Assembly (NCBI GenBank): GCA_903909505.1 | Contig: CAIVVZ010000485.1 | Location: 9,347-41,346 of the forward strand | Direction: 5' to 3' | Source of the DNA: an uncultured Desulfobacteraceae bacterium | GTDB lineage: Bacteria > Desulfobacterota > Desulfobacteria > Desulfobacterales > Desulfatirhabdiaceae | DNA length: 32,000 bases | Part shown: one piece after another, positions 7,760 to 28,928 of the stretch | How positions within the stretch are numbered: position 1 is the first letter of the stretch | Layout: the number at the start of each line of letters is the position of its first letter | Position numbers and translations under genes: made by a program | Notes under the pieces: generated by a model | What the model was told of the DNA's origin: nothing | Database searches by the model: none | What the model saw: the letters and a program-made list of their open reading frames with translations, nothing else

Positions 7760-7998
7760 AAAGTTGGAAGTAAGTTATGTAAGTGCAACAGATATTACGG
7801 CACTCAAAACATGCCTTAATGGTTGGTTTTTCACCGACAAGGCCACCCGGCAGGCATCACCGTATGATATGGATGCTGGAGCCATATGAATTAACAATAG
7901 ATAATCAATTTACTCCTGCTGGATGTCTTATTCTGCAAAGCCTTGCAGTCCGCCGGATGAACAAACAATCTCCAAGTCTATCTAAAAAGGAATCGACC

Positions 7999-10635
7999 AT
8001 GAGCACTTTTATTGATCCAAAATGGCACGATAATCAGATACAACACTTCACCAAGGTCCTGCCCCACTATCAATCTTATGCCCGGTTGATGGAAGACATC
8101 CTTTCCGCTGCCTGTAAGCTCTATGCCCCTTTGGCCATTGTCCAGGCCCGGGCCAAAAACCAGTCCAGTTTCGCGGAGAAGGTAGTGCGCAAAGCTGGCA
8201 AATACCTTGACCCGGTCCACCAACTCACGGATCTGTGCGGCGCCAGGGTGATTACTCAGACCCAGGTCGAGGTGGATCGCATCAGTCAATTTATCCAGGA
8301 CAACTTTATCATCGATGTGGCCAACAGTGTGGACAAGCGAGCAACTCTTGGCGTGTCCGAATTCGGATATCTTTCTGTTCATTACATTATCCAGCTTCCC
8401 AGCCGGGAAGACGGCAAGATCATGGGCGTTCCCATCCCGACCGAGCTGATTACCGGTGGATTCAAATCAGAAATCCAGATCCGGACACTGTTGCAGCATG
8501 CCTGGGCCGGCATCAGCCATGACAGCCTGTACAAGAACATGTTCAAACCGCCCGACCAGTGGCAGCGGGAGATGAACCGTCTGGCTGCCACACTGGAGGA
8601 AGCGGACCAGAGCTTTACCCGCTTTGTCAATCGGCTGGATACCTATGCCGCCAACCACGGCGCCTATTTACCGGCTGAAGAGCGCCAGGCTGAAATCGAC
8701 ACCCTGAAAATGATTCTTGAAAAAGAACCCCAACCTGAGTTGAAACCCCGTCATGCCCTGCGCATCGCCGGGATTTGCCGGGCTGCCGAAAACTGGGCCG
8801 AGGTGGTGGACGTGCTGACCCCTTTTGACAAGGAGGATGATTTCCAACTGCTGCGGGAACTGGGTTATGCGCTTTGCCGGGCGAACAGGCAAAATCCCGG
8901 CGGCGCCGATTACCAAAGGGGGTTGCATTTGCTCGAAAAGGCAGGCAGGCTTGACCCTGCAGATGCCCAGACCCATGACTGTCTGGCCTGGACCTTACGC
9001 AATGGCCGGCAAGCCGAAGACAGTCAAAGAGTCCATGAGCATCTGGCCAGAGCTTACGAACTGCAACCCGCCAACCCCTACTATCTGGCGGCCTATCTGG
9101 AAAGCGAGATTCTTTCCCACCAAACTCTCTCCCATATTTCCCTGATGCGCCCCACCCTCCTGAAAGCCATCGACACCTGCCGCGCCCATGTTGAGGCAAA
9201 TATTGAAATTCCCTGTGCCTGTTTTACCATGGGCCGATTCTACCTGTATCTGAATATGCCGGATGCGGGTTTGCTGGCCTATCTGGACGGGATGCGCCTG
9301 TGCCTCTGTGAACAGGGGCCGGCCCAGTACGAGCTGCTTCAGGCAGAGCTTGATTTCCTTTACCAGTTGGAGCGGATCAAAAATTTGTTGCCCGGCTACG
9401 ATGCGGCGATGCGGCTGTTGACCATCGCCAGATTCATCAAAGCCGGATGCCAGGATGTTGACCAGCAGCGCGCCTGTTTACCGGTTGCGGAAAGAAAAGA
9501 GGCGGCGCCTGAATCAAACACGGCTGAGCTGGACCCAGCTGAGATCCAGCGGCAGGAAAAAGCGCGCAGAAGTTTGATAGCATTGATGACGCGGGACATC
9601 ACGTATCAGACGCCCGTGGTGGCGGTTGCCGGGTCCTGCGCCACCGCCGAGGAAACGCACATGCAACAGTATCAGGACATGCTGATCGAGGCTTTCCGCA
9701 ATTACCAGGGGATCATATTTTCAGGGGGCACCCTGAACGGCATCGGGCGACTGATAGGGAACCTGATGGAGAAAATGCCTCCAGACGCCTCCAAACCGGC
9801 CAGTGCCTTTGCCTATCTGCCCCGATACCTGCCGGCGCATGCCAAGCCGGATGCCCGCTATCACCGGCATATCCACACACATGGCCAGGACTTCAGCCCC
9901 CTGGAACCGCTTCAGATGTGGATCGACCTTCTGGCTTCCGGTATCGATCCCCGGCAGGTGAAACTCCTGGGAATCGGCGGCGGAGCCATTTCGGCCTTTG
10001 AGTATCGTCTTGCCATTACACTGGGTGCGCAGGTCGGCATCATTCAAAACAGCGGTCGCGAGGCTGATGCCCTCTTGATTGATTCAAACTGGAAAGCTGC
10101 TGGCTGTCTGCTGCCCCTTGCCGAAGACCGGATGACCATCAAGTCGTTTATCACCGACCCGAATCCGATGATTGCACCAGACCGGATAGAGGAAATGGCC
10201 ATCAATGTCCATGAAGCCTTTCGCCAGCAGCGGATGAAAGCTCCGCGCAAGGAACCCAATCTCCAGCCCTGGGAGAAACTCTTGCCGGATTTCCAAAATT
10301 CCAACCGGCAGCAGGTTGTCTACGCGGTGGAGATCTTGCGTCAGGCCGGGTTCAACATTGAGGTGGCTTCAACCGGAGAAGATTTTATGTCCCCTGATTT
10401 TACCAAAGATGAAATCGATTTTATGGCCGAGATGGAGCATGGCCGCTGGAATGTGGAGCGTCTCCGGTCCGGCTGGCGCTATGGCCCTGAAAAAGATGAG
10501 GCAAGCAAACTCAGCCCCTATTTGATCCCCTGGAAATATCTCAACGATGAAATCAAAGGATACGATCGCGAGGCGGTGTGCAATTTTCCCGGTTTGCTGA
10601 GGCAGGTCGGGCTGAAAGTCGTACGAAAAAAATAA
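7999..10635 (+). CDS. RelA/SpoT-homolog (RSH) nucleotidyltransferase / TPR-like / SLOG (LOG-like) / RyR-domain fusion protein
   Basis: I place the start at ATG 7999, which has an AAAGGA RBS. The track's 7783 start adds 72 aa with no recognisable motifs. RSH synthetase motifs are all present at about 8140-8540: 'ARAKNQSSFAEK', 'DLCGARVI', 'GYLSVHY', 'EIQIRTLLQHAWAGISHDSLYK'. SLOG/LOG glycine motifs lie at about 9600-10070: 'VVAVAGS', 'IIFSGGTLNGIG', 'GIGGGAISAFEYRLAITLGAQVGII'. The RyR-type repeats lie at about 10180-10620: 'INVHEAFR...' and 'EMEHGRWNVERLRSGWRYGPEKDEASKLSPYLIPWKYLNDEIKGYDREAV'. Confidence 0.8.
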   Translation: MSTFIDPKWHDNQIQHFTKVLPHYQSYARLMEDILSAACKLYAPLAIVQARAKNQSSFAEKVVRKAGKYLDPVHQLTDLCGARVITQTQVEVDRISQFIQDNFIIDVANSVDKRATLGVSEFGYLSVHYIIQLPSREDGKIMGVPIPTELITGGFKSEIQIRTLLQHAWAGISHDSLYKNMFKPPDQWQREMNRLAATLEEADQSFTRFVNRLDTYAANHGAYLPAEERQAEIDTLKMILEKEPQPELKPRHALRIAGICRAAENWAEVVDVLTPFDKEDDFQLLRELGYALCRANRQNPGGADYQRGLHLLEKAGRLDPADAQTHDCLAWTLRNGRQAEDSQRVHEHLARAYELQPANPYYLAAYLESEILSHQTLSHISLMRPTLLKAIDTCRAHVEANIEIPCACFTMGRFYLYLNMPDAGLLAYLDGMRLCLCEQGPAQYELLQAELDFLYQLERIKNLLPGYDAAMRLLTIARFIKAGCQDVDQQRACLPVAERKEAAPESNTAELDPAEIQRQEKARRSLIALMTRDITYQTPVVAVAGSCATAEETHMQQYQDMLIEAFRNYQGIIFSGGTLNGIGRLIGNLMEKMPPDASKPASAFAYLPRYLPAHAKPDARYHRHIHTHGQDFSPLEPLQMWIDLLASGIDPRQVKLLGIGGGAISAFEYRLAITLGAQVGIIQNSGREADALLIDSNWKAAGCLLPLAEDRMTIKSFITDPNPMIAPDRIEEMAINVHEAFRQQRMKAPRKEPNLQPWEKLLPDFQNSNRQQVVYAVEILRQAGFNIEVASTGEDFMSPDFTKDEIDFMAEMEHGRWNVERLRSGWRYGPEKDEASKLSPYLIPWKYLNDEIKGYDREAVCNFPGLLRQVGLKVVRKK

Positions 10636-15241: not shown

Positions 15242-15248
15242 CTCAGCG

Positions 15249-15428: not shown

Positions 15429-15506
15429 TAGCTCATAACCGATGCTGGAATCCAATCGCTAAACATGATATCTCAACTTTCTTGAATAAGTGGAGAATAG
15501 AACGTT

Positions 15507-16943
15507 ATGAAAGAACATTGGACAAATGATCACTGGTACGATTTCCTTGACGATCTGAGTTCGAACTCCGGCAGGTACGTGCCAGTCGTCGGGTCCGAAT
15601 TGATGGTGTATCAAGAAGCAGGGAAACGCATTAGTGTTCACCAAAAGTTGGCAAAACGACTGGCTGCTAAACTACGAGTCGATACGAAGGAACTGTCGGA
15701 ACCATTTGGGCTGATTGAAGTTATACGCACTTATCAATTGCGCCGCAAAGATTTCGTTTCCGCCAAGCCTTACTCCTCTATCGTGGAAATTCTTAACGAA
15801 GAAAAATGGCCCATTCCCGAACCTGTGCGCAAACTGGCATCCATTCGGCATTTCAATTTCTTTTTGAACGCCAGTTGGTTGCCGTTTCTTAAGCTCGCGC
15901 TGGAGCAGGAACGGCAATTCCCAGTGTTTGAGGCAAGCAATATCGTGGGGAAGCCGATGCAGGACTTTGATGATGAAAGTATTGGTGTCGGTCTCTGCGT
16001 ATTCAACTTGTTTGGCAGTGCATCGGCATCATCTTCGGCCAATTCAAACACATTTTCGGTCACCGATGATGACTTACTTGAGTGTATGCATCGCTTGCTG
16101 TCCAACCCTCCATCGAGAACGAGTGCCCACCTACTCGAAAAGAACCGTGAGTTACTTGTTTGGGGATGCAGTTTTTCCAGTTGGTTGGCCCGTTTTTTTC
16201 TCTATAGCCTTGTCAGGACAGTTCCCCTCCAAGCCGGCCAGGCGCGCCGCATGCGGGTGGTTGCAGACGGGCGCTGCACCGGTGATGATTCCTTGCAAGC
16301 GTTTTGGACCAGTCTCAATGCTCCCATCTACGACGGAGAATCCGCAGTGGATTTCATCGATGAGCTTTTTGAACGGTGGCACAAGGAGTTTCCCGCCGTA
16401 CCGGACCCACTGGCGGACGCGCCCCAGTCAATCCTCCTGGACCATAATCCTTTTTCGACCGGAGAAATCTTTATCAGTTATGCGCGAAAAGACGCAGAAG
16501 CGGCAAAAGAAATTGCGGCATGCCTCAGAAATAATGGATTATCGGTCTGGTTGGACTTGGACTGCCTTCAGAATGGTGACCTCTACCGCGCCAAAATCCG
16601 GTCCAACATTCAATATTGTTCTTGTTTCATCCCCCTGATCTCCTCTGAAGCCATTGGAAATGTCGTGGAACTCGGCTTCATGTACAAAGAGGAATGGCTT
16701 TTTGCCAAGGAGCAGGCCGAGTTGAGGCGTGATGGCGGCATGGCGCTTAGCGAATTCATCCTGCCGGTCTGCATCGATCCGAGTATTGATCTCTACGATC
16801 CTCGACTGCCCGACTTTATCCGGGAGCGGCACATCGAGTCATGGGCGGACGGCCCCCCGTCTTCGTGGACCGGGCGAGTGCGAGAGGCCCGCAAGCAATT
16901 TGCAAGAGCAAAAAAGGGGCAACCAAGAAAGGAACAACAATGA
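15507..16943 (+). CDS. C-terminal TIR-domain protein with a possibly degenerate SIR2-like N-terminal region
   Basis: 478 aa. The TIR falls at about 16460-16850: 'GEIFISYARKDAEAAKEIAACLRNNGLSVWLDLDCL...CFIPLISSEAI...YKEEWLFA'. The N-terminal layout ('YVPVVGSEL', 'VFNLFGSAS', 'LLVWGCSFSSW') resembles SIR2_2 strand/loop spacing but lacks the usual His. The stop overlaps the next gene's start (ATGA). Confidence 0.7.
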   Translation: MKEHWTNDHWYDFLDDLSSNSGRYVPVVGSELMVYQEAGKRISVHQKLAKRLAAKLRVDTKELSEPFGLIEVIRTYQLRRKDFVSAKPYSSIVEILNEEKWPIPEPVRKLASIRHFNFFLNASWLPFLKLALEQERQFPVFEASNIVGKPMQDFDDESIGVGLCVFNLFGSASASSSANSNTFSVTDDDLLECMHRLLSNPPSRTSAHLLEKNRELLVWGCSFSSWLARFFLYSLVRTVPLQAGQARRMRVVADGRCTGDDSLQAFWTSLNAPIYDGESAVDFIDELFERWHKEFPAVPDPLADAPQSILLDHNPFSTGEIFISYARKDAEAAKEIAACLRNNGLSVWLDLDCLQNGDLYRAKIRSNIQYCSCFIPLISSEAIGNVVELGFMYKEEWLFAKEQAELRRDGGMALSEFILPVCIDPSIDLYDPRLPDFIRERHIESWADGPPSSWTGRVREARKQFARAKKGQPRKEQQ

Positions 16944-19900
16944 AGAGCACGGGAGCATGCTCAACCGAACGGCCATGGCCGGGTTTATTTTCTTACACCG
17001 AGGCTGATGCAGGCTTTTTCTTCGGCAGGACGCGGGAACTGACGCAGGTCTCATCCAGCATTCTTGCAAATCGCACGACTGTCATATTCGGCCCTTCCGG
17101 AACCGGGAAAACATCTCTACTGCAAGCCGGGGTGTTTCCTGGTTTGCGAGAGAAAGCCATGTTGCCAATTACCGTGCGCCCTCTCGAGTTCAGCCGCTGC
17201 GCGAACTCCCTCTGTACCTACGTCAAGAGTCATTTGCGCGCTAACTGCCTTGAAGAAGGAATCGAACTCGACGAGGAAAGACTTCCGCCCTTGACCTCCG
17301 AAGCAGATGAGTCGCTTTGGGAATACCTCCAACGTGTTGAGATGTGGGGCGCATCTCTCGAACTGGTTGAACCCGTCCTCGTTTTTGATCAGTTCGAAGA
17401 GTGGATGCGTTTGTTTGCCATCGACGATCCGGCCACGCATGAACTTGCCGATGTGATCGAAAACTACGTCCCGCATGCCATCGAGTCACTTCCCCCGTCC
17501 ACAGCGTGGGGGCAGGTTATCGCATCCCGTAATCATCCCTGGCGCGTTGTCTTGTGTCTACGCGAGGATTGCATCGGCCAACTGGAAGACCTCAGCAGAC
17601 GCATGCCTTCCGTCATGCGCAACCGGATACCCTTGCGGCGGATGACCCGCCAACAAGGGCACGAAGTCATCCTTGGTCCTGGTGCTGACATTATCCACAA
17701 AGAGATGGCAGAACGTCTGCTCGATTTTGCCGTCACCGGCGGCCCGCCAAACAGCGGATCCAATTTGCCGTCGATGCAAGACAACCACCCGGTTGAACCG
17801 GCTATCTTAAGCCTGATCTGCCGGGAATTGAACGAAAGACGCATCACAGAGGGAACCCCACAGATCACAGCTCCCGATATGGAAGAAGCGGGGGGCCAAA
17901 TCCTGCACAACTTCTACAAGCAGTGTTTTTCATCGTTCCGCTCATTAACTGCCCAGTGCTTTGTTGAAGATTACCTCATCGACCCCTCGATCACGCCGGG
18001 CCGAACCTTCGCCACAGATGCTCAAGCGATCAACTCAGGGGTGCGCCCGGACGAAATCGAACACTTGATCGGGCAACGTCTGCTCCGACGGGAAACGCGT
18101 CAGAGCGGCACGCACCTCGAACTGAGCCATGACGTACTCATCCAGCCCGTCAAGGAGAGTCGCGACAGCAGGCTGGAACAGCTTGTCCGTGAGGAGGCGA
18201 AACGGACGGCCCGAGAACTGAAAAAACTAAAACGGCAGCGCCAAGCTATTGCCTACATTTTTGCGATCACCGTCGTTGCGCTGGTCATTTCGGTACTTGC
18301 AGTTTTTGCTGTGATCCAGCGAAAGGAGGCGGACCGACAGCGCCGCTTGGTCGAGCTAAAGCTGGATCTGGTCCTTGGTGCCATAGACAAACTAATTTAT
18401 CAGATTCCCGATCAACTGGGCAAGCTGCCGGGCAGCATCCCCATCATCTCCCGCATTCTGGAAGAGAATCTCGATCTCATGCAGCGCCTTCTGCAGTTCA
18501 ATCCCGATTCGGGTTCGCCACGTGCCCAGCGCAATCTGGCCGCCAATCACCTGAAACTCGGAGACCGCTGGCTGCTTATCGGCGACACGAAACACGCCAT
18601 ATCCGCCTATGGCGAGGCGGAAAAACTGCTTCAGACGCTGGACCAACAGCAACAGAGCGCCCGATCGCAACGAGACATTGCCTATCTCAACGAACGCATG
18701 GGCTCGGCACTGCTACGGCGGGGCGACATCGAAGATGCCCGGCAGCGCTACCAGACAGCGCTCTCGATTGACACGGCGCTGTTCAGTCAGCACCCGGATG
18801 AGGTCGAAAACCTGCGCTCTCTGGCGGTGGATTATCAGCATTTGGGGGACGTGGCAGCGCGCGTGGTGGACCATCCCGGCGCCCTGACATTCTATACCCA
18901 GTTCCTATTGGCAGCCGAACGGCTTGCCGACCGACCCGGCACTCCAATGGATCGACGCTACCTGGCCACATCCCAGGACAAGCTGGCCTTGGTTCATGGG
19001 TGGCTCGGGAATCTGCAAGCGGCGCGTTGGCATGCATCCAACTGTGTCGAGCTGACCCGCAGCCTGGCCAACGACGTTCATGATTTGCCGTTTCGACGAG
19101 ATTTTGTCACGGCGCTGCAGAGACTGGGCAATCTCCAGAAGAAAATGGGTGATCCCGGCCAGGCACTGATGACCTTCCGGGAGATGGAGGCCGTTGCCAG
19201 ACAACTGCCGCTGGATCCAGCCAACCTGGACACCCGATTCAACCACGCTTTGGCAATGCGACAAAGTGCCGACTGTCTGGTAGACCTTAACCGTGTCGAA
19301 GAGGCCCTGGCGGTCTATGATGAAACCGAACGGGTTTTTCGTGGCGCCATTCTTGGTGCGGATCCTGAAGACCATACCGTCTATCTGCAGTTGGCGGAGA
19401 TTTTCGGGGGGCGTGCCTGGGCTCATGCTTTGCGGCAAGAACTGAATCCGGCCATTAAGGATTATCTGCGGTGCATCGATACACTGGAGACAATCCCTGA
19501 GATATCACGTGACAAGGTAGTACAGAACAAACTCATGGCCGCCCACACCCGTGTGGCAAAGTTGCTGGACGATCTCGGAGACGTGCCCGGGCGCAACACC
19601 CATTGGCAAGCAGCCGGACACCTGTTCCGCCAGCAATACGGGGATACTTTCCCGGTTGAGGCATGGACGCCCGTCACGCGGGGCCTGCTCTTTCACATCA
19701 TCGGCGAAAGCAACACCACCATCATCGCCGACCTGCGAGAGGATGAGGCGGATAAACACAAGGCGGTACAGGCATCCCGCACACGCGAATCTCTGCGGGC
19801 CTGGAATATGACCTGTGCAAGCCTGGCCACAGCGCTTGCGGATGCGGGCCAATTGCAGGAAGCGGCGCAGATCTACGCGCAGATGCTGGCCACTGCCTCG

Positions 19901-20869
19901 GATTACCTCAAAAACAACGACGATGCAGTGATCCGCGGCGATCTTGCCTACAGCTATCTGAAACAGGGCGAACTCCTGAAACGCGCGGGAGACCGGAATG
20001 GGGCGCTACAGGCACTGACGAGCGCACACGCGCTGTTTAAAAAAGTCGCGGCGGGACAATCCAGGCAGTTCAACATCGTTTACGGTCTTGCCACCATCCA
20101 GCGCGCCCTGGCGGATGAATGTCTTCACCACGCCGCGTCTGGAGACAATCTGCCAAAACGCCTTGAACTTGCCGAAACCTGTCTGGGATACGCCAGCGAG
20201 CTGATCGGTCTGGACGGCGCTCTGCTAAAAACGGGAAAAGCACCCGGAATCAGCGGCATGACGATCCTCCAGGATGCCGAACGCATCGCCCGTCTGTGCA
20301 GCCTGATCCAAAACCGGGAAGAAGCGGCAAAATCGTGGAAACACGTGGGCGATCTATCGCTAACACTCTGGGGGGACGAATCGACCGTTCCCGCAAGAGC
20401 GCTGCTCTTGCAATATGCCAGTACCGCCGCTGACGGTATGTGTGCCGCGGGCCAGCCTGACCAGGCGGTTTCCCTGATCGAGTCCGTGAGCCAGCGCATC
20501 GAGAAAACCATCTCCGGTCCGGCCGACTTCGCAGGGCACCAGCACCTGGCATCGGCCCTTGGTAACCTTTGCTGGCTGCAGCTTCTTGCCGGAAACGGTC
20601 AGGCTGCCATGACTACCGGGTCCCGCGCCGTTGCCCTGATCCCCAATGAGCGCCCCAACCCCGCACGTTTGAACCTTGCCCATGCCTATCTGCTGAGCGG
20701 TTCATTCGACCATGCGAAGGGCCTCCACGAAAAATATTCCGGCACGGTCTTTGAAGACGGCCGACACTGGAACAGCGAGGTGCGTAACGACTTCAGGCTG
20801 TTGCGCGAGGCGGGATTTGACCACCCGGATTTCAAGAAAATCGAGGCGATGCTGAAGGATATGGATTAA
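16940..20869 (+). CDS. STAND NTPase (nSTAND-like P-loop) / single TM helix / long TPR array
   Basis: I place the start at ATG 16940, an ATGA overlap with the upstream stop. The track's 16841 start would overlap the upstream gene by about 100 nt. Walker A is 'IFGPSGTGKTSLLQAG' (about 17090). Walker B is 'VLVFDQFEEW' (about 17378). The TM helix is 'IAYIFAITVVALVISVLAVFAVI' (18247-18316). About 850 aa of TPR-like repeats follow. Confidence 0.8.
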   Translation: MKSTGACSTERPWPGLFSYTEADAGFFFGRTRELTQVSSSILANRTTVIFGPSGTGKTSLLQAGVFPGLREKAMLPITVRPLEFSRCANSLCTYVKSHLRANCLEEGIELDEERLPPLTSEADESLWEYLQRVEMWGASLELVEPVLVFDQFEEWMRLFAIDDPATHELADVIENYVPHAIESLPPSTAWGQVIASRNHPWRVVLCLREDCIGQLEDLSRRMPSVMRNRIPLRRMTRQQGHEVILGPGADIIHKEMAERLLDFAVTGGPPNSGSNLPSMQDNHPVEPAILSLICRELNERRITEGTPQITAPDMEEAGGQILHNFYKQCFSSFRSLTAQCFVEDYLIDPSITPGRTFATDAQAINSGVRPDEIEHLIGQRLLRRETRQSGTHLELSHDVLIQPVKESRDSRLEQLVREEAKRTARELKKLKRQRQAIAYIFAITVVALVISVLAVFAVIQRKEADRQRRLVELKLDLVLGAIDKLIYQIPDQLGKLPGSIPIISRILEENLDLMQRLLQFNPDSGSPRAQRNLAANHLKLGDRWLLIGDTKHAISAYGEAEKLLQTLDQQQQSARSQRDIAYLNERMGSALLRRGDIEDARQRYQTALSIDTALFSQHPDEVENLRSLAVDYQHLGDVAARVVDHPGALTFYTQFLLAAERLADRPGTPMDRRYLATSQDKLALVHGWLGNLQAARWHASNCVELTRSLANDVHDLPFRRDFVTALQRLGNLQKKMGDPGQALMTFREMEAVARQLPLDPANLDTRFNHALAMRQSADCLVDLNRVEEALAVYDETERVFRGAILGADPEDHTVYLQLAEIFGGRAWAHALRQELNPAIKDYLRCIDTLETIPEISRDKVVQNKLMAAHTRVAKLLDDLGDVPGRNTHWQAAGHLFRQQYGDTFPVEAWTPVTRGLLFHIIGESNTTIIADLREDEADKHKAVQASRTRESLRAWNMTCASLATALADAGQLQEAAQIYAQMLATASDYLKNNDDAVIRGDLAYSYLKQGELLKRAGDRNGALQALTSAHALFKKVAAGQSRQFNIVYGLATIQRALADECLHHAASGDNLPKRLELAETCLGYASELIGLDGALLKTGKAPGISGMTILQDAERIARLCSLIQNREEAAKSWKHVGDLSLTLWGDESTVPARALLLQYASTAADGMCAAGQPDQAVSLIESVSQRIEKTISGPADFAGHQHLASALGNLCWLQLLAGNGQAAMTTGSRAVALIPNERPNPARLNLAHAYLLSGSFDHAKGLHEKYSGTVFEDGRHWNSEVRNDFRLLREAGFDHPDFKKIEAMLKDMD

Positions 20870-20949: not shown

Positions 20950-21426
20950 TTGAAATCGATCAACAACACATCACCAGTCTACCAGCATCCGGCTGCGTTA
21001 CTCCAGCACCTCATTCAGTTCGATACCACCAACCCACCCGGCAACGAGGCTGAATGTATCACCTTCAGTAATGGCCTGCTGAACATCCCGGGCAAATTGG
21101 GCAAACAGGTTAGTTTCTTTGATCCGCTTTTACACAACACAGTAGATGCTACCGTTTTGCACGGCAGCGATAAATGCAACGCGATACCGGGCGAAATCTC
21201 CGTGGAACTGGACGGTCGATTGCTGCCGGGTTATCGCCCGGAAGATATGATCGCGGAACTTCATCAAATTGTCGGCAAAGACATAGCGTTTGATGTGATG
21301 ATGCACGATCCAGGGGCATCTGAGCCAGATATGGGGCTGTTCGATACATTGGCCGGCATTTTGCGCAAGGCCGACCCAGATGCAATACCGGTCCCGCTCC
21401 TATGGAGTAAACCATGCCCCACTTGA
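20950..21426 (+). pseudogene. Internally deleted, 3'-truncated M20-family peptidase (ArgE/DapE-like) remnant
   Basis: The N-terminal 'LLQHLIQFDTTNPPGNEAE' is joined almost directly to the dimerisation/C-terminal part ('NAIPGEISVELDGRLLPGYRPEDMIAELHQIV...'). The ~200-aa metal-binding core is missing, and the ORF ends prematurely after 'PVPLL'. Confidence 0.65.
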
Positions 21427-21662
21427 TTCATCGCCCCAAATGCGATAAACATCTTACGATAGTTGGCAAGTTTCTGATCTGTCCAGAGCATGTGCAGGTG
21501 ATTTTGGTCAGGCCCTTCGTACCAATGTGGATCTTTCTCAGCTATGGCCACGACAGCAACGAAGCCCTTGTCAGGCTGGTCACGACTGAACTGGTGAAAC
21601 GCGGACACGATGTCTGGTTCGACAAGGCCGTTTCTTTACATGAGAACCATTGTTCATTCTGA
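21414..21662 (+). pseudogene. Truncated Zn-ribbon + TIR N-terminal fragment (paralog of the 25239 gene's 5' end)
   Basis: 'KCDKH...ICPEHVQVILVRPFVPMWIFLSYGHDSNEALVRLVTTELVKRGHDVWFD' parallels 'KCPEC...CVDCSHEFTVEKPFVPYRVFISYGHDEHASLALRLRDDLRERGHEAWFD'. A stop follows about 55 aa into the TIR. Confidence 0.65.
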
Positions 21663-21911
21663 AGCCTGGAACCGCCTGAGAATACATTGCCTTTTCACTG
21701 CTATAGTTGAAGGCCGGCAACACTGGTGGAAAAATCATCCTTTAACATCTACAATCAATTTGCCTTACATGAATAGCCGGGGATCCTGTTCGAGAAGTTG
21801 GTGATAACGGAATTGCTTCAGTATATCAGGTTTTATTTGCGTGGTTTGACTGGAAGAAGTATGAAACATTTCGATAAATAATATTTTGCTGCTCACTCAA
21901 AAGGAGGCGTT

Positions 21912-24563
21912 ATGACCGTAAAACAGATTCTGGTCACAGGCGATTTTGTTCACGACAACCATATCTATGAAGGACGGCGTTCCCATTACGGTGACAATAC
22001 GAGTGCAGGCGTAAATCTTAAATCGCAACTCGGCGGGGCGGCCCTGGTGCATGATCTTCTGGATCAGCTCTTGATGGTTAAGAATGAGTCGGAGCGGAAG
22101 TGGAAATCAATCTGTGCGCTGGAGCATACTGCAAACAGCAGCGAGGACTGCCATCTCACCCCGGCAGAGCAGGCATTTGCCTTCTGGCGCCCGTTTCAGA
22201 ATGCAGCGACTGATAAACAATTCTGGCGGGTCAGCGAGGCTATGGGGTTTGGTCCCGCCGAAACAACGCCGATGTGTAAAGTATTGCCCCCAGTGGAAAC
22301 AACCAACAAACCTGAAATTTTGGTTTATTCTGAAGGGGGCATGGGTTTTCGGGAATGCAGGGGGAATTGGTGTGAAGACATGCTATCGGATGCCAAATGG
22401 ATCGTGCTTAAAACCACTTCTCCCGTGGCAACCGGGGCTTTATGGATGCACCTTTCGGAAAAATATCATAATAAACTGATCGTGATCGTTTCTGCCCGAG
22501 AACTCCGCAAATCTCCTGCAAGAATGAATGCCGAGCTGTCGTGGGAAGAAACCATTGAGGGACTTATCCGGGAGGTCGGGCCGGAAGGTACTTTACATGC
22601 GTTATCAAATTGCCGTCACCTGATAGTGGCATTTGAATCGGAGGGTGCTCTCTGGCTCGACATAAAAACTGGTTTTTCTGATGCAAGCGCCTGCCTGATT
22701 TATGAGTCCGGTTCAATTGAAGGTGAACATGCTTACGTGACCAAAGGGACGGCCTTCGGTTATCTCTCCTGTCTTGCTGCTGCCGTTACCTGGGGATTAA
22801 CCTCCGACTCCACCAACTTAGATCTTGCCGCGTCCCTTGAGGGAGGGCTTTCTGCGATGAGGGACCTGAGGGAAAAAGGCCACGGACCTGCCAATGACAA
22901 ACCTGATGGTTTCCCAGCCAAGCGTCTTGCAGACGAAATAAAAAAGACTTCATTGCGTTATTCGCGAGCTTTTTTCCGAACAACAGACCTGGCTGCTAAT
23001 GCTAGCCCCGGCTCGGTTTCCGAATGGAGTTTTCTTCGCCAGGCGCAGCGCAACGATGGGCCGGCCTATGACCTTGCACGGCTTGTTCTTCTCCGTGGCC
23101 CCATTGCTCTTGATAACCTGCCGCATCTGAAAGTAGGCAACCTTTTAACAGCTGACCGCATGGAAATTGAAGCCTTTCGCACCCTTGCCCAGGTCATCCG
23201 AAGATATGTGGAGAAGGATTCCGGCAAGAAGCCCCTCTCCATCGGCGTCTTCGGCCCTCCCGGAGCTGGTAAATCCTTTGCGGTTGAGCAAATTGCCAAA
23301 AACCTTGTAAAAAATGTTGAGTGGCGGGAGTTCAACCTTTCTCAGTTCAATGATCCAGTGGACTTAATTGGAGCCTTCCATCAGATCCGTGACCATGTTT
23401 TGCAAGGTAAACTCCCTGTAGCTTTTTTTGACGAGTTTGATTCACAAAATTTTAAATGGCTTCAGTACCTCCTTGCGCCGATGCAGGACGGAAAGTTTCA
23501 GGAAGGGCAACTTACCCATACCTTGGGAAAATGCCTTTTCGTTTTTGCCGGTGGAACCAGTCCTACGTATGATGCCTTCGGCCCCCCGGAAACTTCGGAC
23601 AAAGATGGCATGGAGACTGAACTTCGACAAAAATTTCGTCTTGCAAAAGGTCCTGATTTTAAAAGCCGCATTGAAGCCTATTTAGATGTATTAGGGCCGA
23701 ACCAGCGTCAAATCCTCCAGACAGTTATACCCGAAGACAAGAGGCTTGTTGAGAAAATTAGTGGTCGCGATTTCATCATCGACCAATCTGACATCGTTTT
23801 TCCGGTACGCAGGGCTTTGATGATACGCGCTCAGTTAAAGTGCGGAACGGATGACAAGCTGGAAATGGACGAGGGGTTGATTCATGCCTTGCTACATGTT
23901 GAAAAATATATCCATGGCAACAGGTCCCTGGAAAAAATTTTGCAACCCTTTGCAGCGGCCCAGACCAGTAGCCTGCACAGCTCCCTCCTCATGCCCTTAA
24001 CCCAGCTCTGCATGTACACTGATGGAAAAGCATTTATCTCGTTCTGCTCAAGTGCACCGAAACTGTTTTCCCCTGAAGCGCCTCTGACCAAGGTGCAAAT
24101 TGAAAAAATCGCTCCGGCAATTCATGAAACTTACTGTGAACTTGAAGATAAAAAAGATGAGAAGAAGCCGAAGACAAATAAGGATTTCGAGAGTCTTAAC
24201 GAGTTTTTCAAGAATTCCAATCTCGCCGCTGCAACACGAATGTTAAAATTAATGGCTATTGTGGGACTAACTTTAGAGAATGGAATTGCAAGCGAAGAAG
24301 AGGAAAATTCCGTCAGACACTATCTGGAATATTATCTCCTGGCACTGGCCGATGCTGAGCATGAAGAGTGGATGGAGTGGCACTTCTCTCAAGGATGGCA
24401 TTACAACAAAGATCGAATTAATGAAAAGAAACTCCACCCCTGCTTACTCCCGTTTTCAAAATTGACCGATCCGGATAAGGAAAAAGACCGGAATGCGATC
24501 CGGCATTTCCCTGATTTTGTCCGCAAGGCGGATATGAAAATCATATTCCAAAAACAGCTCTGA
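21912..24563 (+). CDS. PfkB/ribokinase-like (degenerate) / AAA+ ATPase / RyR-domain protein
   Basis: 883 aa with an AGGAGG RBS. The N-terminal 'ILVTGDFVHDNHIYEG...LGGAALVHDLLDQL' resembles the PfkB sugar/nucleoside-kinase N-terminus, and the GAGD anion-hole position reads 'TKGTAFG'. AAA+ Walker A is 'GVFGPPGAGKSFAVEQIAK' (about 23254) and Walker B is 'VAFFDEFDS'. The RyR repeats fall at about 24100-24540 ('IHETYCEL...', 'AEHEEWMEWHFSQGWHYNKDRINEKKLHPCLLPFSKLTDPDKEKDRNAI'). Confidence 0.75.
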   Translation: MTVKQILVTGDFVHDNHIYEGRRSHYGDNTSAGVNLKSQLGGAALVHDLLDQLLMVKNESERKWKSICALEHTANSSEDCHLTPAEQAFAFWRPFQNAATDKQFWRVSEAMGFGPAETTPMCKVLPPVETTNKPEILVYSEGGMGFRECRGNWCEDMLSDAKWIVLKTTSPVATGALWMHLSEKYHNKLIVIVSARELRKSPARMNAELSWEETIEGLIREVGPEGTLHALSNCRHLIVAFESEGALWLDIKTGFSDASACLIYESGSIEGEHAYVTKGTAFGYLSCLAAAVTWGLTSDSTNLDLAASLEGGLSAMRDLREKGHGPANDKPDGFPAKRLADEIKKTSLRYSRAFFRTTDLAANASPGSVSEWSFLRQAQRNDGPAYDLARLVLLRGPIALDNLPHLKVGNLLTADRMEIEAFRTLAQVIRRYVEKDSGKKPLSIGVFGPPGAGKSFAVEQIAKNLVKNVEWREFNLSQFNDPVDLIGAFHQIRDHVLQGKLPVAFFDEFDSQNFKWLQYLLAPMQDGKFQEGQLTHTLGKCLFVFAGGTSPTYDAFGPPETSDKDGMETELRQKFRLAKGPDFKSRIEAYLDVLGPNQRQILQTVIPEDKRLVEKISGRDFIIDQSDIVFPVRRALMIRAQLKCGTDDKLEMDEGLIHALLHVEKYIHGNRSLEKILQPFAAAQTSSLHSSLLMPLTQLCMYTDGKAFISFCSSAPKLFSPEAPLTKVQIEKIAPAIHETYCELEDKKDEKKPKTNKDFESLNEFFKNSNLAAATRMLKLMAIVGLTLENGIASEEEENSVRHYLEYYLLALADAEHEEWMEWHFSQGWHYNKDRINEKKLHPCLLPFSKLTDPDKEKDRNAIRHFPDFVRKADMKIIFQKQL

Positions 24564-24666
24564 AATGTCCAAGTTTGATAACCTGGGAATTGAGGCGGAA
24601 GTGCATAGAAGGTTGCCGGAGTTCCGCCTCATCACAACAAAATTGTTGGGACTGGAGGCAAAAATT

Positions 24667-25084
24667 ATGAAATCTTATCGAGTTTTCGTCAGCTATTCTC
24701 ATGAAAACAAAGACGAAGCGGAAAAAGTTCGCAAACACCTGAAGAACATTGGCACAACGTCTATGTCGGATCATAATTTGGCGCCCGGCATGTCTTTCAC
24801 CGACGAAATCAAGCGCTACATAGCCTATTCTCATCTTTTTATCCCCATCCGTTGGCGATTGGTTCCTTGCAGAAGCAGTCGTTCCGCTGAAAGGTGACTC
24901 CTATCGCCTGACCATGTTCACGCGCCATGGACCGACGGTTATCGATCGCGTAACGGAGTTTGACAATGAACTTGAAGACCTGCTGAAGATGACCGACCTC
25001 AAGGGAAAATCATCGCGATGTTTTGCCATAGACCATCTTAATGATTTGATTGAAAATATCAGAAAAGGGGAATCTGCAAACTAA
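24667..25084 (+). pseudogene. Small stand-alone TIR-like protein, apparently frameshifted near 24826-24850
   Basis: ATG 24667 has GGAGG 8 nt upstream; ATG 24565 is an alternative start. 'YRVFVSYSHENKDEAEKVRKHLKNIG...' is the TIR first strand. The ORF frame stops at 24897. The +1 frame continues with 'LSPSVGDWFLAEAVVPLKGD...' (the expected SxW..E TIR motif) and stays open to TAA at 25082-25084. Confidence 0.6.
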
Positions 25085-25238
25085 ATCATTATTGGAGCAA
25101 TACCCTTGGCCATCTGTTCAGACGATCGAAACCCTCATAACATTCGTTAGGGAGCAACTCACCATGGGCCGCAAAACAGACAAAAACATGAAATAATGGC
25201 AGTAAATCATGTGAATTCAGCAAGAAGGAAATATAATC

Positions 25239-28200
25239 ATGGAAATTAAGTGCCCTGAATGCAGCTCGCCGGAGCCGATGTGGAACAAAAAACGGCAGGT
25301 CCATGTCTGCGTGGATTGCAGTCATGAATTTACGGTCGAAAAGCCCTTTGTGCCTTACCGGGTATTCATCAGTTACGGCCATGACGAACATGCCTCGCTG
25401 GCGCTGCGGCTGCGGGATGATTTGCGAGAAAGGGGACACGAGGCATGGTTCGACGATGATCTCCTCATGCCCGGTCATGATTGGGAGTCGCATATCGAGG
25501 AGGGGCTTCAATGGGCAGCTGCGGGCAAGCCGAATGCCGCAGTGGCTCTGCTGTTGACCCCGCATTCGGTGCGCCGCCCGGACGGCTATTGCCTGAACGA
25601 GGTGGCCCGCGCCCTGATTCTGGGACTGCGGATTATCCCGCTGATGGTGGTGGAAAGCGAGCCGCCGCTCTCCATTTGCCGCATTCAGTGGCTTGACATG
25701 CGGGAGTGCATCCCGATCCATGAAAAGGAAGCACTTTATGCCCCTCGGTTCGAGCGGTTTCTGGCTGCGCTGGAGCAGGGAAAGCTGGATTTCGAGGGAG
25801 TTCAGAGTCGTCTGCTCCGCGTATTACAGCCCATCCATTTCTCCGCCGACCTGCTCAAACTGCTCCGTGATTTCACCGGGAGGCAGTGGGTGTTCGATGA
25901 GGTGGACACCTGGTTTGCCAATCCCGCCGGCGCAAAAGTGTTCTGGCTGACAGGCGCACCCGGTGTGGGCAAAAGCGCAATCGCCGCCTGGATCAGGGAG
26001 CATCGCCGTGAAGTCGCCGCCTTTCACTTCTGCGACATTTACAGCGAAGAAAAACGCAACCCCGCCAAACTCGTCTGCTCCATAGTGTACCAGCTCACAA
26101 CCCAGCTACCGGAATACGAGGCCCGTCTTGCCCGTCTCGATCTGGAGTCCATCGTTCAGGAATATCACGAGGCCTACACCCTCTTCGACAAACTCCTTGT
26201 CCAGCTTCTGGCTGACGCTTTTCCCGTCCCCGATCGCCCCATCGTCGTGCTCATTGACGCCCTTGACGAGGCCACATCCGACCGCCGCAACGAGATCGTC
26301 CGCTTCCTCAGCCAATGCGCGGACAAAACCCCTCCCTGGATGCGTTTTCTTGTCACCTCGCGCCCCGAACCGGAAATCACCGCCTCGTTCCAGGCGCTTT
26401 CCCCCTACATCCTTGACACCAGCAGAGAGGAAAACATCAACGATCTAAGACGTTACCTCATTATGGGCCTTCCCGGCATTACCCCGGAGCAGACCGGGGA
26501 AATCCTGCGCAGAAGCGAAGGCGTTTTCCTCTACGTTATCCATGTGATGGAAGCCATTCGGGGCGAAACTCTCAGCCTGCAACGCATGGAGGAATTTCCT
26601 CGCGGCCTGGGCGATGTATACCAGCGGTACTTCGATCGCCAGTTTGGAAAGGATCTGACCTACTACGAAAGCAAAATCACCCCGATTCTCCAACCCATCT
26701 TCGCAGCTTATGAGCCGCTCACCCTGAACCATCTCAAACGGATCTGTGATATCACCGACGACACCGAACTGCTGCGCCGCCTCAACCGCCTCGGTTCGCT
26801 TTTTCCCACCAGCGGCGAAGGCGAAACAGAGACAATCCGCCCCTTTCACCGTTCGCTCTGCGACTGGATCACCGACCGTAACTCCGCGGGACACTTCGTC
26901 ATCGCCATATCCGACGGCCGCCGCATCCTGGCTGAGCATTGCTGGCGCGAATTCCAGCATGGCCTGGACGCGCTTTCCCCCTACGCCCTGCGCTATTTAC
27001 CGGCTCACCTATGCGCGGCCGAACGCTGGGATGACCTGATCGGTAATGAAACGAATCCTGGCCCGCTGACAGATCTGCGCTATATCGAAGCCAAATGCAC
27101 CGCCGGATTAACGCACGATCTTGTTCGAGACTACAACTCGGCCCTCACCGACCTTCCGGAGTTCCGGGAGGAGAACGAACGGCTCCAGCGGCGGGACGAG
27201 GCAATGCATAGATACAACCAGGCCCTGCGGGATTACGCGGTAAAGCATTATGACTGGTTGCAGTCTAAAGATAGCGGTGAATTGGTCGCTGAACCAGAAT
27301 ACCCTCCGTTGCCTCCCGAGCTGCAAATCAAAGCCGAAATGGAGATCCCAGAAGAACATTCGCCACGCGCCGCCCGTTTGCGGCATTTCGCCAACTTCGT
27401 GTCGGGCCACATGAATACTCTTGCAGCGTTTCCACGCGAAACTCTGCCGCTCGCTTTCAACTATGCAGAAAATGGGCCTGTCCACGACCTTGCCAAGCGA
27501 CATATCGATGATCGCAAACTGCCTTTCCTGAAACGTTCTCCCCGCCCTCCCATGCCCCCTTTTCAACCGCAATGCATGCAAACTCTTGAAGGACACAGCG
27601 GCTCAGTCGAAAGCGTGTGCGTGTGCCCAGATGGACGCCGCGCCGTCTCGGCAAGTTGGGGCATCACCCTTCGGATATGGGACCTGCAGAGCGGACAATG
27701 CCTGCAAACACTTGTAGGACACATCTCCCGGGTCTACAGCGTATACGTGTGCCCCGATGGGCGTCACGCTGTCTCGGCAAGTGATGACAATACCCTTCGA
27801 ATCTGGGATCTGGAAAGCGGGCAATGCCTGCAAACACTTGAATGCTACAGAAACCATGTTGACAGCGTGAGCGTGTGCCCAGATGGACGCCGCGTCGTCT
27901 CGGCAAGTGCAGACAATACCCTTCGAATCTGGGACCTGCAAAGTGGACAATGCCTGTTAACACTTGTAGGCGACGATTCCCCCGTCACCAGTGTATGCGT
28001 GTGCCCAGATGGACGCCGCGCCGTCTCGGCAAGTGCAGACAATACCCTTCGAATCTGGGACCTGCAAAGTGGACAATGCCTGCAAACACTTGAATGCGAC
28101 AGCTCCCAGCACTCCCAAGTGAGCGTGTGCGTATGCCCAGATGGACGCCGCGCCGTTTCGGCAAGTGCAGAGAATACCCTTCGGATCTGGGACCTGCAAA

Positions 28201-28928
28201 GTGGACAATACCTGCAAACACTTGAAGGCCACACCGACTCGGTCTACAGCGTGTGCGTGTGCCCAGATGGACGTCGCGCCGTCTCGGCAAGTTGGGACAA
28301 AACCCTTCGAATCTGGGACCTTGAGAACGGGCAATGCCTGCAAACACTTGTAGGACACAGCTCCGGGGTCCACAGCGTGTGCGTATGCCCAGATGGACGT
28401 CGCGCCGTTTCGGCAAGTTGGGACAAAACCCTTCGAATCTGGGACCTTGAGAACGGGCAATGCCTGCAAACACTTGAATTCCAAAGCTTCTTGGACGGCA
28501 GCGTGTGCGTGTGCCCCGATGGACGCCGCGCCGTCTTGACAAGTGATTACGGTGTCCTTCGAATCTGGGACCTTCAGAGCGGCGAGATTCTGGCCATATA
28601 CTGTGGTAGTGCCGTTTCGATGACATTATCACCGGCTGGCGACCATATCATCTGCGGAACGGCGGATGGCCAGGTTCATTTCCTCACCCTTGTCAACTTC
28701 CCGCCTTCCGGCCCAGCAATCATCACCGCAATCAATTCATCCAAAGCCCGCTGCCCCTATTGCAGCAAGGAGTTTGTGCCTCCTCTGGATGTAGCCAATG
28801 CAATAAATGCTCATGCTGACTTCAGTGATCCGCAATCTGAGATCCTTTCGGCCTGCCCCAACTGCGGCAAGACACTCAAGTACAACCCATTTTTCATACA
28901 CACTTTCGAGCCAACCCAGATCCGGTGA
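25239..28928 (+). CDS. Zn-ribbon / TIR / NACHT-type STAND NTPase / WD40 beta-propeller / C-terminal Zn-ribbon (bacterial NLR-like protein)
   Basis: 1229 aa. 'CPECSS...CVDCSHEF'. TIR: 'YRVFISYGHDEHASLALRL...AWFDDD...LLLTPHSVRRPDGYCLNEVARAL'. Walker A: 'FWLTGAPGVGKSAIAAWI' (about 25952). Walker B: 'IVVLIDALDEA' (about 26241). Eight near-identical WD40 units plus one degenerate unit. C-terminal 'CPYCSKEF...CPNCGKTL'. Confidence 0.9.
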   Translation: MEIKCPECSSPEPMWNKKRQVHVCVDCSHEFTVEKPFVPYRVFISYGHDEHASLALRLRDDLRERGHEAWFDDDLLMPGHDWESHIEEGLQWAAAGKPNAAVALLLTPHSVRRPDGYCLNEVARALILGLRIIPLMVVESEPPLSICRIQWLDMRECIPIHEKEALYAPRFERFLAALEQGKLDFEGVQSRLLRVLQPIHFSADLLKLLRDFTGRQWVFDEVDTWFANPAGAKVFWLTGAPGVGKSAIAAWIREHRREVAAFHFCDIYSEEKRNPAKLVCSIVYQLTTQLPEYEARLARLDLESIVQEYHEAYTLFDKLLVQLLADAFPVPDRPIVVLIDALDEATSDRRNEIVRFLSQCADKTPPWMRFLVTSRPEPEITASFQALSPYILDTSREENINDLRRYLIMGLPGITPEQTGEILRRSEGVFLYVIHVMEAIRGETLSLQRMEEFPRGLGDVYQRYFDRQFGKDLTYYESKITPILQPIFAAYEPLTLNHLKRICDITDDTELLRRLNRLGSLFPTSGEGETETIRPFHRSLCDWITDRNSAGHFVIAISDGRRILAEHCWREFQHGLDALSPYALRYLPAHLCAAERWDDLIGNETNPGPLTDLRYIEAKCTAGLTHDLVRDYNSALTDLPEFREENERLQRRDEAMHRYNQALRDYAVKHYDWLQSKDSGELVAEPEYPPLPPELQIKAEMEIPEEHSPRAARLRHFANFVSGHMNTLAAFPRETLPLAFNYAENGPVHDLAKRHIDDRKLPFLKRSPRPPMPPFQPQCMQTLEGHSGSVESVCVCPDGRRAVSASWGITLRIWDLQSGQCLQTLVGHISRVYSVYVCPDGRHAVSASDDNTLRIWDLESGQCLQTLECYRNHVDSVSVCPDGRRVVSASADNTLRIWDLQSGQCLLTLVGDDSPVTSVCVCPDGRRAVSASADNTLRIWDLQSGQCLQTLECDSSQHSQVSVCVCPDGRRAVSASAENTLRIWDLQSGQYLQTLEGHTDSVYSVCVCPDGRRAVSASWDKTLRIWDLENGQCLQTLVGHSSGVHSVCVCPDGRRAVSASWDKTLRIWDLENGQCLQTLEFQSFLDGSVCVCPDGRRAVLTSDYGVLRIWDLQSGEILAIYCGSAVSMTLSPAGDHIICGTADGQVHFLTLVNFPPSGPAIITAINSSKARCPYCSKEFVPPLDVANAINAHADFSDPQSEILSACPNCGKTLKYNPFFIHTFEPTQIR
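27594..28607 (+). repeat. Tandem array of 8 highly conserved 126-bp (one 132-bp) WD40-coding units
   Basis: Units start at 27594, 27720, 27846, 27972, 28098, 28230, 28356 and 28482. The consensus is 'H..xVxSVCVCPDGRRAVSASxDxTLRIWDLQSGQCLQTLxG'. Units 6 and 7 differ at 2 of the 102 nt in codons 7-40. Confidence 0.9.

Follow-up and report, generated by a model that had tools for sequence, protein, structure and literature searches.

TIR enzymes make ADP-ribose (ADPR)-derived immune signals in bacteria, plants and animals, and the receptor domains known to recognize them are few. Kaur, Burroughs, Iyer and Aravind have reportedly described NTPase-centered conflict proteins, in which a STAND or AAA+ module carries an N-terminal effector and a C-terminal sensor, as well as bpMoxR ternary systems; the Pfam families PF20030 and PF20703 derive from that work. 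In Thoeris, a TIR protein (ThsB) is paired with an effector that has a signal-binding domain; type I effectors are SIR2-SLOG proteins, type II effectors are Macro-transmembrane proteins, and type VII combines a TIR protein with the SLATT effector ThsH (bioRxiv 10.64898/2025.12.03.692087). A phage member of the Pfam RyR family (PF02026), RyDEP, cleaves 2'/3'cADPR (cyclic ADPR), and other phage homologs of RyDEP have nanomolar affinity for these Thoeris signals (Lopez Rivera et al., May 2026 preprint; PMC13232231). Here we analyze a 32,000-nucleotide (nt) stretch of DNA, which we call the window, from an uncultured Desulfobacteraceae bacterium (NCBI GenBank assembly GCA_903909505.1, contig CAIVVZ010000485.1, positions 9,347 to 41,346 of the forward strand). 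It encodes an intact 883-amino-acid (aa) protein (21912..24563, + strand) that combines an N-terminal ribokinase/PfkB-like domain, an AAA+ ATPase module and a C-terminal tandem RyR domain resembling Repeat12 (R12) of ryanodine receptors.

We regard this protein as a probable TIR-linked nucleotide signaling module with a new type of receptor (RyR/R12) on a new PfkB-like/AAA+ chassis. We propose, at a probability of about 0.45, that it is a ligand-gated AAA+ switch in TIR-based (Thoeris-like) signaling, whose RyR domain receives an ADPR-type TIR signal. We have fair confidence that it is a nucleotide-gated AAA+ machine with RyR input, operating within TIR and SLOG-SLATT signaling modules. The combination of an RyR sensor with a PfkB-like output is undescribed as far as the searchable literature shows; in full-text searches, we found no paper linking cellular RyR proteins with TIR, SLOG or SLATT, the RyDEP preprint aside. 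PADLOC and NCBIfam hold no family model for the protein and give no Thoeris match to it, and their P-loop-level matches (QatA and similar) were discarded as family assignments. An initial annotation, made from the DNA sequence, had described the same three modules and had recognized the architecture from no characterized defense system. Pfam, AlphaFold2 models and Foldseek bear out the modules, and the second point agrees with the lack of a PADLOC or NCBIfam model and of a matching paper in the literature searched.

The protein shares with the NTPase-centered conflict proteins the tripartite layout of output, NTPase and sensor, a marginal bpMoxR match, and islands rich in nSTAND, NACHT and TIR genes. 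Unlike in the MoxR-vWA-beta-propeller ternary systems, no vWA or beta-propeller partner is present among the window's open reading frames (ORFs) that were scanned, and the AAA+ fold matches classical members (FtsH, ClpB, HslU) rather than MoxR specifically. The likeness of the family to Thoeris lies in a competent TIR gene beside a gene with a nucleotide-binding sensor domain, and in SLATT proteins encoded in the same operons. Unlike Thoeris, the family has variable partners, often large TIR-STAND proteins, and its role in defense is putative. No described Thoeris effector has an RyR, AAA+ or PfkB-like domain, and RyR terms appear neither in the Thoeris paper nor in the supplements searched (bioRxiv 10.64898/2025.12.03.692087).

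A conserved protein of three modules

Among 5.8 billion proteins searched, we identified 724 relatives of the 883-aa protein, more than 120 of which are of similar length and align over 99-100% of the query (40-81% identity); the ORF is therefore a real, conserved gene. When all of 1.84 billion representatives clustered at 50% identity were searched, 1,778 of them matched (E<=1e-30), and a scan of one genome per species placed relatives in at least 335 GTDB species. Carriers include Syntrophobacteraceae, Verrucomicrobiota, Planctomycetota, Chloroflexota, Actinomycetota, Bacteroidota, Clostridia and methanogenic archaea. The window copy retains all columns that are invariant in an alignment of 46 sequences, so we consider the gene intact, in agreement with its ORF and full-length conservation. 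A promoter and terminator scan of positions 21300-25400 gave results at chance level, and the composition profile around the gene is unremarkable.

The tandem RyR Repeat12-like domain spans aa 727-883 (24090..24560, +) and is supported by Pfam, Foldseek, a match to RyDEP and conservation. Pfam RyR (PF02026) matches aa 801-866 (nt 24312-24509) with 51.2 bits versus a gathering cutoff of 27.4 (E 1.5e-13), and all sequence matches of this part in the PDB are ryanodine-receptor repeats (best E 1.4e-17). In Foldseek, an AlphaFold2 model of aa 421-883 (predicted local distance difference test, pLDDT, 88.3) aligns over 181-207 columns with whole R12 domains, at template modeling (TM) scores of 0.5-0.6 normalized by target; these matches include a Bacteroides/human chimera (6UHI) and human RyR3 R12 with ATP or dantrolene. 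Because the model aligns to complete R12 domains, we conclude that the protein has two tandem RyR repeats within this interval, a degenerate repeat 1 at aa ~727-795 and a canonical repeat 2 at aa 800-880, both on the + strand. The RyR domain named in the initial annotation is thus confirmed, and it consists of a complete Repeat12-like tandem (aa ~727-883) rather than one repeat.

In 45-46 of 46 homologs, four residues of this domain are unchanged: H817, W820, H842 and D859. Residues 814-859 align without gaps to positions 73-118 of the RyDEP chain 35tm_A, in which the four correspond to index positions 76, 79, 101 and 118, that is, to H75, W78, H100 and D117 in the numbering of the paper plus one. 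A tblastn search with the RyR domain against a phage collection, seeking RyDEP, gave four weak matches, none of them DyoEdafos; since the RyDEP sequence is absent from these matches, the residue mapping rests on the ungapped 35tm_A coordinates. In the RyDEP complex with 3'cADPR (PDB 35TM), H75, W78, H100 and D117 contact 3'cADPR/ADPR, and H75 and D117 form the catalytic dyad, which is also kept in sponge-type homologs without cleavage (PMC13232231). The four ligand residues are conserved family-wide in R12, including animal channels that bind ATP or ADP (PMC13232231). RyDEP and the 883-aa protein belong to the same Pfam family, have the four ligand residues (H, W, H, D) at identical spacing, and are both tied to TIR/Thoeris signaling. 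RyDEP, a small viral anti-defense protein of ~140 aa, forms homodimers; the cellular protein, by contrast, has both RyR repeats in a single chain, at its C-terminus, together with AAA+ and PfkB-like modules. Unlike the RyDEP gene, genes of the family adjoin host TIR genes, and ligand binding by their products is predicted.

The N-terminal domain (aa 1-350; 21912..22961, +) has a ribokinase/PfkB fold without the NXXE and GAGD motifs, as judged from AlphaFold2, Foldseek, hhalign and conservation. No Pfam, NCBIfam or PADLOC model matches aa 1-420, and a PDB profile search with the whole family alignment was dominated by RyR matches and uninformative for the N-terminus. Searched against the PDB with Foldseek, an AlphaFold2 model of the domain built from 52 sequences (pLDDT 85.8; predicted TM score 0.89) has PfkB-family kinases as all of its top 50 matches (E 1.3e-10 to 1e-7, probability 1.0, TM scores 0.46-0.56 by target). 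Pseudouridine kinase (PsuK/PUKI), fructose-1-phosphate kinase (FruK), HldA and ribokinase (RbsK) are among them, and the ribokinase-like fold suggested initially is borne out by this result. At the sequence level, hhalign in local mode gave a weak match of the family profile to six PfkB sequences (probability 19.8%, E 0.0012), which is still collinear, with aa 1-346 aligned to RbsK 2-308; the same profile gave no match to the single E. coli RbsK sequence.

In this weak alignment, D15 pairs with the ribose-binding D16 of RbsK, and G41-G42 pairs with G41-G42. Both are among the invariant residues of the N-terminal domain (D11, D15, R23, G41-G42, R147, R199, E270 and H324). The NXXE motif lies opposite a gap in the query in the better hhalign alignment, and the GAGD position lies opposite TAFGYLSC, which has no acidic residue; D255 of RbsK falls, again by the weak alignment, on L285 or S286, and aa 279-291 hold no conserved acidic residue in the family. 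Directly upstream of the GAGD position is a family-specific insertion with an invariant E270-G-[E/D]272. We considered I-E270-G-[E/D]272 as the true GAGD equivalent of an active kinase and think this less likely, since the profile alignments put it in the insertion before the GAGD strand. The domain therefore shares with PfkB/ribokinase kinases (RbsK, PsuK/PUKI, FruK, HldA) the overall fold, the substrate-site Asp and the Gly-Gly pair. Unlike those kinases (PF00294), it has no Pfam profile match, has lost the equivalents of K43 and N46, and carries the insertion with its invariant Glu; NXXE and the catalytic Asp of GAGD were not recovered in it. These features support a PfkB fold that has probably lost its kinase machinery and kept part of its sugar site, in line with the initial suggestion that the domain is not a kinase; E270-G-[E/D]272 leaves some doubt.

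The two ends are joined by a classical AAA+ ATPase with lid (aa 421-726; 23172..24089, +), recognized from Pfam, AlphaFold2, Foldseek and invariant columns. The Pfam AAA/bpMoxR match covers aa 446-554; AAA scores 23.3 bits against a cutoff of 21.2, and the bpMoxR (PF20030) match is marginal, at 28.0 bits against a cutoff of 27 over a partial profile (positions 36-151 of 205). The AAA+ part of the aa 421-883 model matches FtsH, Skd3/ClpB, HslU, RuvB and MgsA in Foldseek. Walker A (GPPGAGKS, aa 448-455; 23253-23276, +) and Walker B (FFDEFD, aa 505-510; 23424-23441, +) are both invariant across 46 homologs, which upholds the earlier description of a classical AAA+ module with both motifs intact. 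Also invariant is K579-G-P-D-F-x-S-R586, which resembles in sequence the classical second region of homology (SRH). From the invariant Walker A, Walker B and R586, we predict that the module is an active ATPase.

Genomic partners and natural fusions

We surveyed the neighborhoods of 80 non-redundant loci of the family, calling ORFs and searching them with locally built hidden Markov models (HMMs); the outer flanks (4-8 kb) of the same loci served as the control for enrichment. A TIR gene lies within 8 kb of the family gene in 35 of the 80 loci, across many phyla, and is directly adjacent in 14. Close to the family gene (within 1 kb), TIR genes number 1.61 per 10 kb, as against 0.05 per 10 kb at 4-8 kb, a ~30-fold enrichment, and the catalytic Glu is kept in all adjacent TIRs of the surveyed loci. 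The second partner is a gene encoding a SLOG-like domain followed by SLATT_3 and SLATT_1, found in 26 of 80 loci (directly adjacent in 14) at a density of 1.19 versus 0.10 per 10 kb over the same distances (~11-fold). Both partners are present at 12 loci, and 23 have a TIR gene without SLOG-SLATT. Of the 40 loci whose flanks both reach 5 kb or more, 30 have TIR and/or SLOG-SLATT. The association of homologs with a TIR partner, raised in the initial annotation, is thus strong. A fixed two-gene TIR operon does not describe the family, whose partners are TIR and/or SLOG-like/SLATT proteins, with neither at about one quarter of the well-flanked loci. The adjacent competent TIR gene typical of Thoeris is accordingly found in part of the family, and is absent from the window, which has a remnant.

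Tight three-gene operons occur in unrelated lineages: Geobacteraceae (L024), Alphaproteobacteria (L053), Ignavibacteriota (L055), Bacteroidales (L066) and Methanobacteriaceae (L079). In L024 the genes encode SLOG-SLATT, TIR and PfkB-AAA-RyR proteins and are separated by 27 and 35 nt; across operons of unrelated phyla, gaps of 5-35 nt between genes are seen. The N-terminal domain of the SLOG-SLATT partner carries the motifs GVTGHR...LAEGADR...WDG...GGTA and is followed by the SLATT_3 and SLATT_1 transmembrane domains. We label it SLOG-like because its Pfam matches to the SLOG clan are all sub-threshold (Nuc_deoxyrib_tr at 6.5e-4, DprA, cpYpsA, YAcAr); it has no sequence match in the PDB. Examples of the partner gene are L017:1684-3606, L024:3443-5143, L068:10626-12263 and L074:10625-12277, with 22 other loci. 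At four Chloroflexota loci (L062, L069, L073, L076), the partner's N-terminal domain is a separate 193-aa gene that begins 5-6 nt after the family gene.

Natural fusions and domain swaps were found at both ends of the protein. P0129, present in two independent assemblies, contains the whole architecture plus a helix-turn-helix domain and a C-terminal TIR domain. In P0224, the PfkB-like and AAA+ modules are kept and RyR is swapped for NACHT-TPR. A TIR domain takes the N-terminal position in paralogs at L079 and L043, the former a TIR-AAA-RyR protein encoded next door to a family gene, with TIR in place of PfkB. L002 encodes a 797-aa TIR-NACHT-winged helix-RyR protein (13593-15986), also found at L003, L004 and L006. 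The swaps at L079, L002 and P0224 suggest that RyR occupies the sensor position and the N-terminus the output position.

Two further observations concern these proteins. A P0129-type fusion of 1,322 aa (L089:5091-9059) lies ~1.8 kb from Wadjet JetD/JetC, with a 179-aa TIR gene also close by; this is a defense-island setting. The L002-type protein is an NLR-like STAND protein with RyR at the C-terminus, where TPR, WD40 or LRR sensors usually sit.

At ~13 of 80 loci there is a further, different RyR protein, of RelA/SpoT-SLOG-RyR, NUDIX-RelA/SpoT-RyR or TrkA_N-RyR type. A RelA_SpoT-SLOG-RyR gene adjoins the PfkB-AAA-RyR gene in a metagenome-assembled genome (MAG) of Cytophagia (L016), and a NUDIX-RelA_SpoT-RyR gene adjoins the family gene in a Verrucomicrobiota MAG (L007). 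The initial annotation proposed RyR as a ligand module shared among TIR-linked signaling proteins, and this idea gains from the recurrence of RyR fusions beside the family, together with the binding and cleavage of cADPR by phage RyR proteins (PMC13232231). The ~600-aa fusion of TrkA_N, an NAD-binding Rossmann domain, to RyR is itself undescribed; it recurs at five loci of different phyla, an archaeal one among them, and lies immediately upstream of the family gene or a short distance from it (L030:2-1300, L040:52-1824, L046:12010-13782, L054:6108-7916, L080:6630-8456). These islands also contain stand-alone RyR genes of 74-122 aa (L001:5278-5526, L091:13371-13739).

The TIR remnant and the surrounding island

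The closest ortholog of the 883-aa protein on a long contig is 69% identical and comes from a Syntrophobacteraceae MAG (L001), in which an intact gene for a 356-aa TIR protein (12842-13912) lies 186 nt downstream of the family gene. In a tblastn search of the window with this TIR protein, aa 1-61 match 24664-24846 in frame 1, and aa 274-341 match 24851-25054 in frame 2 (E 2e-08). The 5' remnant (24667..24846, +; TIR_2 profile, tblastn and alignment) corresponds to ortholog aa 1-61, the N-terminal half of the TIR domain, and ends before the catalytic Glu. The 3' remnant (24851..25084, +; tblastn) corresponds to aa 274-341 in the other frame and includes a 56-aa ORF (24914-25084), whose stop is the end coordinate given earlier for the locus. 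The 110-aa ORF at 24565-24897 matches positions 1-56 of the 122 in the Pfam TIR_2 profile, and the actual start of the remnant is the ATG at 24667, not 24565. Relative to the ortholog, ~212 codons (~636 nt; aa 62-273) are deleted and the frame is shifted. The catalytic Glu column, kept by 17 of 17 intact neighboring TIRs, falls within the deletion.

The small TIR gene that the initial annotation placed after the 883-aa gene is therefore TIR-derived and on the same strand, and is a deletion remnant that lacks the catalytic Glu. The accompanying idea that the pair would function once the TIR frame was repaired fails, because ~212 codons are absent and frame repair would not restore them; with ~636 nt missing and the remnants in two frames, repair by a single frameshift is ruled out. 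The 883-aa gene and the TIR remnant do not make up a functional two-gene system.

The nearest catalytically plausible TIR domain belongs to an intact TIR-NACHT(NPHP3_N)-WD40 STAND protein (25239..28928, +), recognized by Pfam and by PADLOC TIR matches, which keeps its catalytic Glu. Antisense ORFs at 25089-25721 (-) and 27100-28650 (-) overlap this gene and are most likely artifacts of the repetitive WD40 coding sequence, not genes. The island's second RyR protein, with RelA_SpoT, SLOG (LSDAT_prok) and RyR domains in Pfam (7783..10635, +), has a TIR gene on either side (6566-7759 and 10790-13663), confirming an arrangement noted initially. Its RyR domain is of the same family as that of the 883-aa protein, as had been claimed; the close likeness also claimed is not seen, since the two share just 27% identity (E 8e-15). 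An HD_4 gene (13889-14449; RelA/SpoT-type hydrolase fold) lies 3 kb downstream of the RelA_SpoT-SLOG-RyR gene and is followed by a PIN gene (14864-15241); the RelA_SpoT-SLOG-RyR and HD_4 pair would fit a toxic small-alarmone synthetase with a hydrolase antidote.

The interval from the nSTAND1-TPR gene to the 883-aa gene contains two gene fragments. One (20950-21426) matches an M20 peptidase dimerization domain in Pfam. The other (21414..21662, +) has a TIR N-terminus and a 'RPKCDKHLTIVG' segment, with a weak Pfam TIR_2 match, a match to the local TIR HMM at 1.2e-10 and tblastn support; the 'RPKCDKHLTIVG' segment resembles the C-terminal part of the 356-aa TIR protein. The fragments at 20950-21662 suggest that this part of the island has repeatedly been rearranged and has decayed. 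The ~220-aa C-terminal region of the 356-aa TIR protein has no Pfam match, and an 'LGDWF..' segment like it recurs in the Ank-TIR protein of the window (11655-11780), which hints at an unnamed domain common to TIR proteins of these islands. Further upstream, a SIR2-like + TIR gene (15507-16943) overlaps the annotated start of the 1,342-aa nSTAND1-TPR ORF (16841-20869) by ~100 nt, so the true start of the latter is probably further downstream.

Candidate roles in TIR signaling

From the architecture, folds, conserved motifs, neighborhood enrichment and fusions observed in the family, we infer its ligand, the direction of signaling and a role in defense. In the ligand-gated switch that we favor, the C-terminal tandem RyR domain would be the input and would bind an adenine nucleotide or a derivative of ADPR, most probably a molecule of the cADPR type made by the neighboring, catalytically competent TIR proteins. 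Ligand binding would control assembly or ATP turnover of the AAA+ module, which would drive the N-terminal PfkB-fold pseudokinase in the output (effector) position. The pseudokinase probably still binds a ribose-containing molecule without phosphorylating it, and may be either the output or a second site for a ribosyl ligand. In many genomes, the protein would work with a TIR protein and a SLOG-like/SLATT membrane protein, a putative pore-type effector. In the window, it would rely on the other TIR proteins of the island, because the TIR gene in cis is destroyed by the deletion.

Several observations weigh against this reading. Fourteen loci have SLOG-SLATT without TIR in cis (directly adjacent in 9), which fits a receptor-only role poorly, and neither partner is present at 10 of the 40 well-flanked loci (5 kb or more on each side); the scanned neighbors at loci without either are housekeeping genes (Lhr helicase, acyl-CoA dehydrogenase, arginine deiminase). 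The four RyR residues are no proof of cADPR specificity, since animal R12 domains that bind ATP or ADP keep them as well. A PfkB fold without kinase motifs has no defined output role, and cellular members of the family are known from sequence and predicted structure alone. PADLOC and NCBIfam lack a matching model, and the TIR gene in cis in the window is dead.

An unlikely alternative is that the protein clears or buffers the signal. Here, RyR would cleave TIR-made cADPR isomers as a glycosidase, like RyDEP, or would sequester them, setting a threshold or reset for signaling; the protein would be a host counterpart of the CRISPR ring nucleases, and its AAA+ and PfkB-like modules would process the product or disassemble TIR/SLATT assemblies. 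The RyDEP catalytic dyad (H75, D117) is invariant in the family as H817 and D859, but the same dyad in non-cleaving sponge-type RyDEP homologs means that catalysis cannot be read from the sequence. An accessory role would explain why the gene occurs with TIR only, with SLOG-SLATT only, with both or alone, and TIR-dense islands such as the window would need guarding against self-activation. For such a task a small RyR protein would suffice, however, and stand-alone RyR genes exist nearby; the conserved 700-aa PfkB-AAA+ part would be left unexplained.

It is improbable that the protein is a housekeeping AAA+ ATPase that responds to nucleotides, for instance as a sensor of ATP, ADP or NAD status, unrelated to immunity and present in islands by chance or hitch-hiking. 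The quarter of well-flanked loci with housekeeping neighbors only, the binding of ATP and ADP by animal R12 domains and the lack of a defense database model all agree with this idea. Chance proximity is, however, at odds with the local enrichment of TIR (~30-fold) and SLOG-SLATT (~11-fold), both measured against internal controls, and with operon gaps of 5-35 nt in unrelated phyla. It is also at odds with the natural fusions to TIR and NACHT-TPR, the co-clustering of other RyR fusion proteins, and the Wadjet JetC/JetD genes beside one locus.

We regard as quite improbable a role upstream of the pore, in which the PfkB-like domain would be an unusual enzyme producing or modifying a nucleotide second messenger, to which the SLOG-like domain of the SLATT protein would respond. 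RyR would then sense the trigger or give feedback, and TIR would be an alternative or additional generator. Such a role would supply a signal maker at the 14 SLOG-SLATT loci without TIR within 8 kb, 9 of them adjacent, which otherwise have none. TIR, a signal-making enzyme, holds the N-terminal position in the paralogs at L079 and L043, and the invariant polar cluster of D11, D15, R23, R147, R199, E270 and H324 suggests a conserved active or binding site. However, NXXE and GAGD, which all PfkB kinases need for phosphotransfer, were not recovered, and 23 loci have TIR without SLOG-SLATT. We know of no precedent for a PfkB-fold signal synthase in defense.

Finally, that the window holds a working two-gene system, in which the small TIR ORF needs only frame repair, is hardly credible: the ORF follows the 883-aa gene on the same strand and the ortholog has an intact TIR gene there, but the idea is refuted for the window by the absence of ortholog aa 62-273, including the catalytic Glu region, by remnants in different frames, and by further gene debris upstream.

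Beyond the ligand-gated switch itself, we tentatively suggest that cellular RyR (R12) domains are an unrecognized, widespread class of receptors for TIR-made, ADPR-derived messengers, with the PfkB-like/AAA+/RyR protein as a new Thoeris-like effector or relay working with TIR and SLOG-SLATT proteins. Binding and cleavage of TIR signals by RyR were shown in 2026 for phage anti-defense proteins only, and the same ligand residues are now seen in large cellular proteins encoded beside TIR and SLATT genes in many phyla, including archaea. If RyR is a host receptor, the family would constitute a new and very large branch of TIR signaling and offer a concrete, testable three-gene system, and cellular RyR receptors would stand alongside the SLOG, Macro, CARF and SAVED sensors. 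Such a receptor would also be relevant to a long-standing question, the direct action of cADPR on ryanodine receptors via R12. On the wider suggestion, the R12 domain of the animal channels would descend from an immune cADPR receptor.

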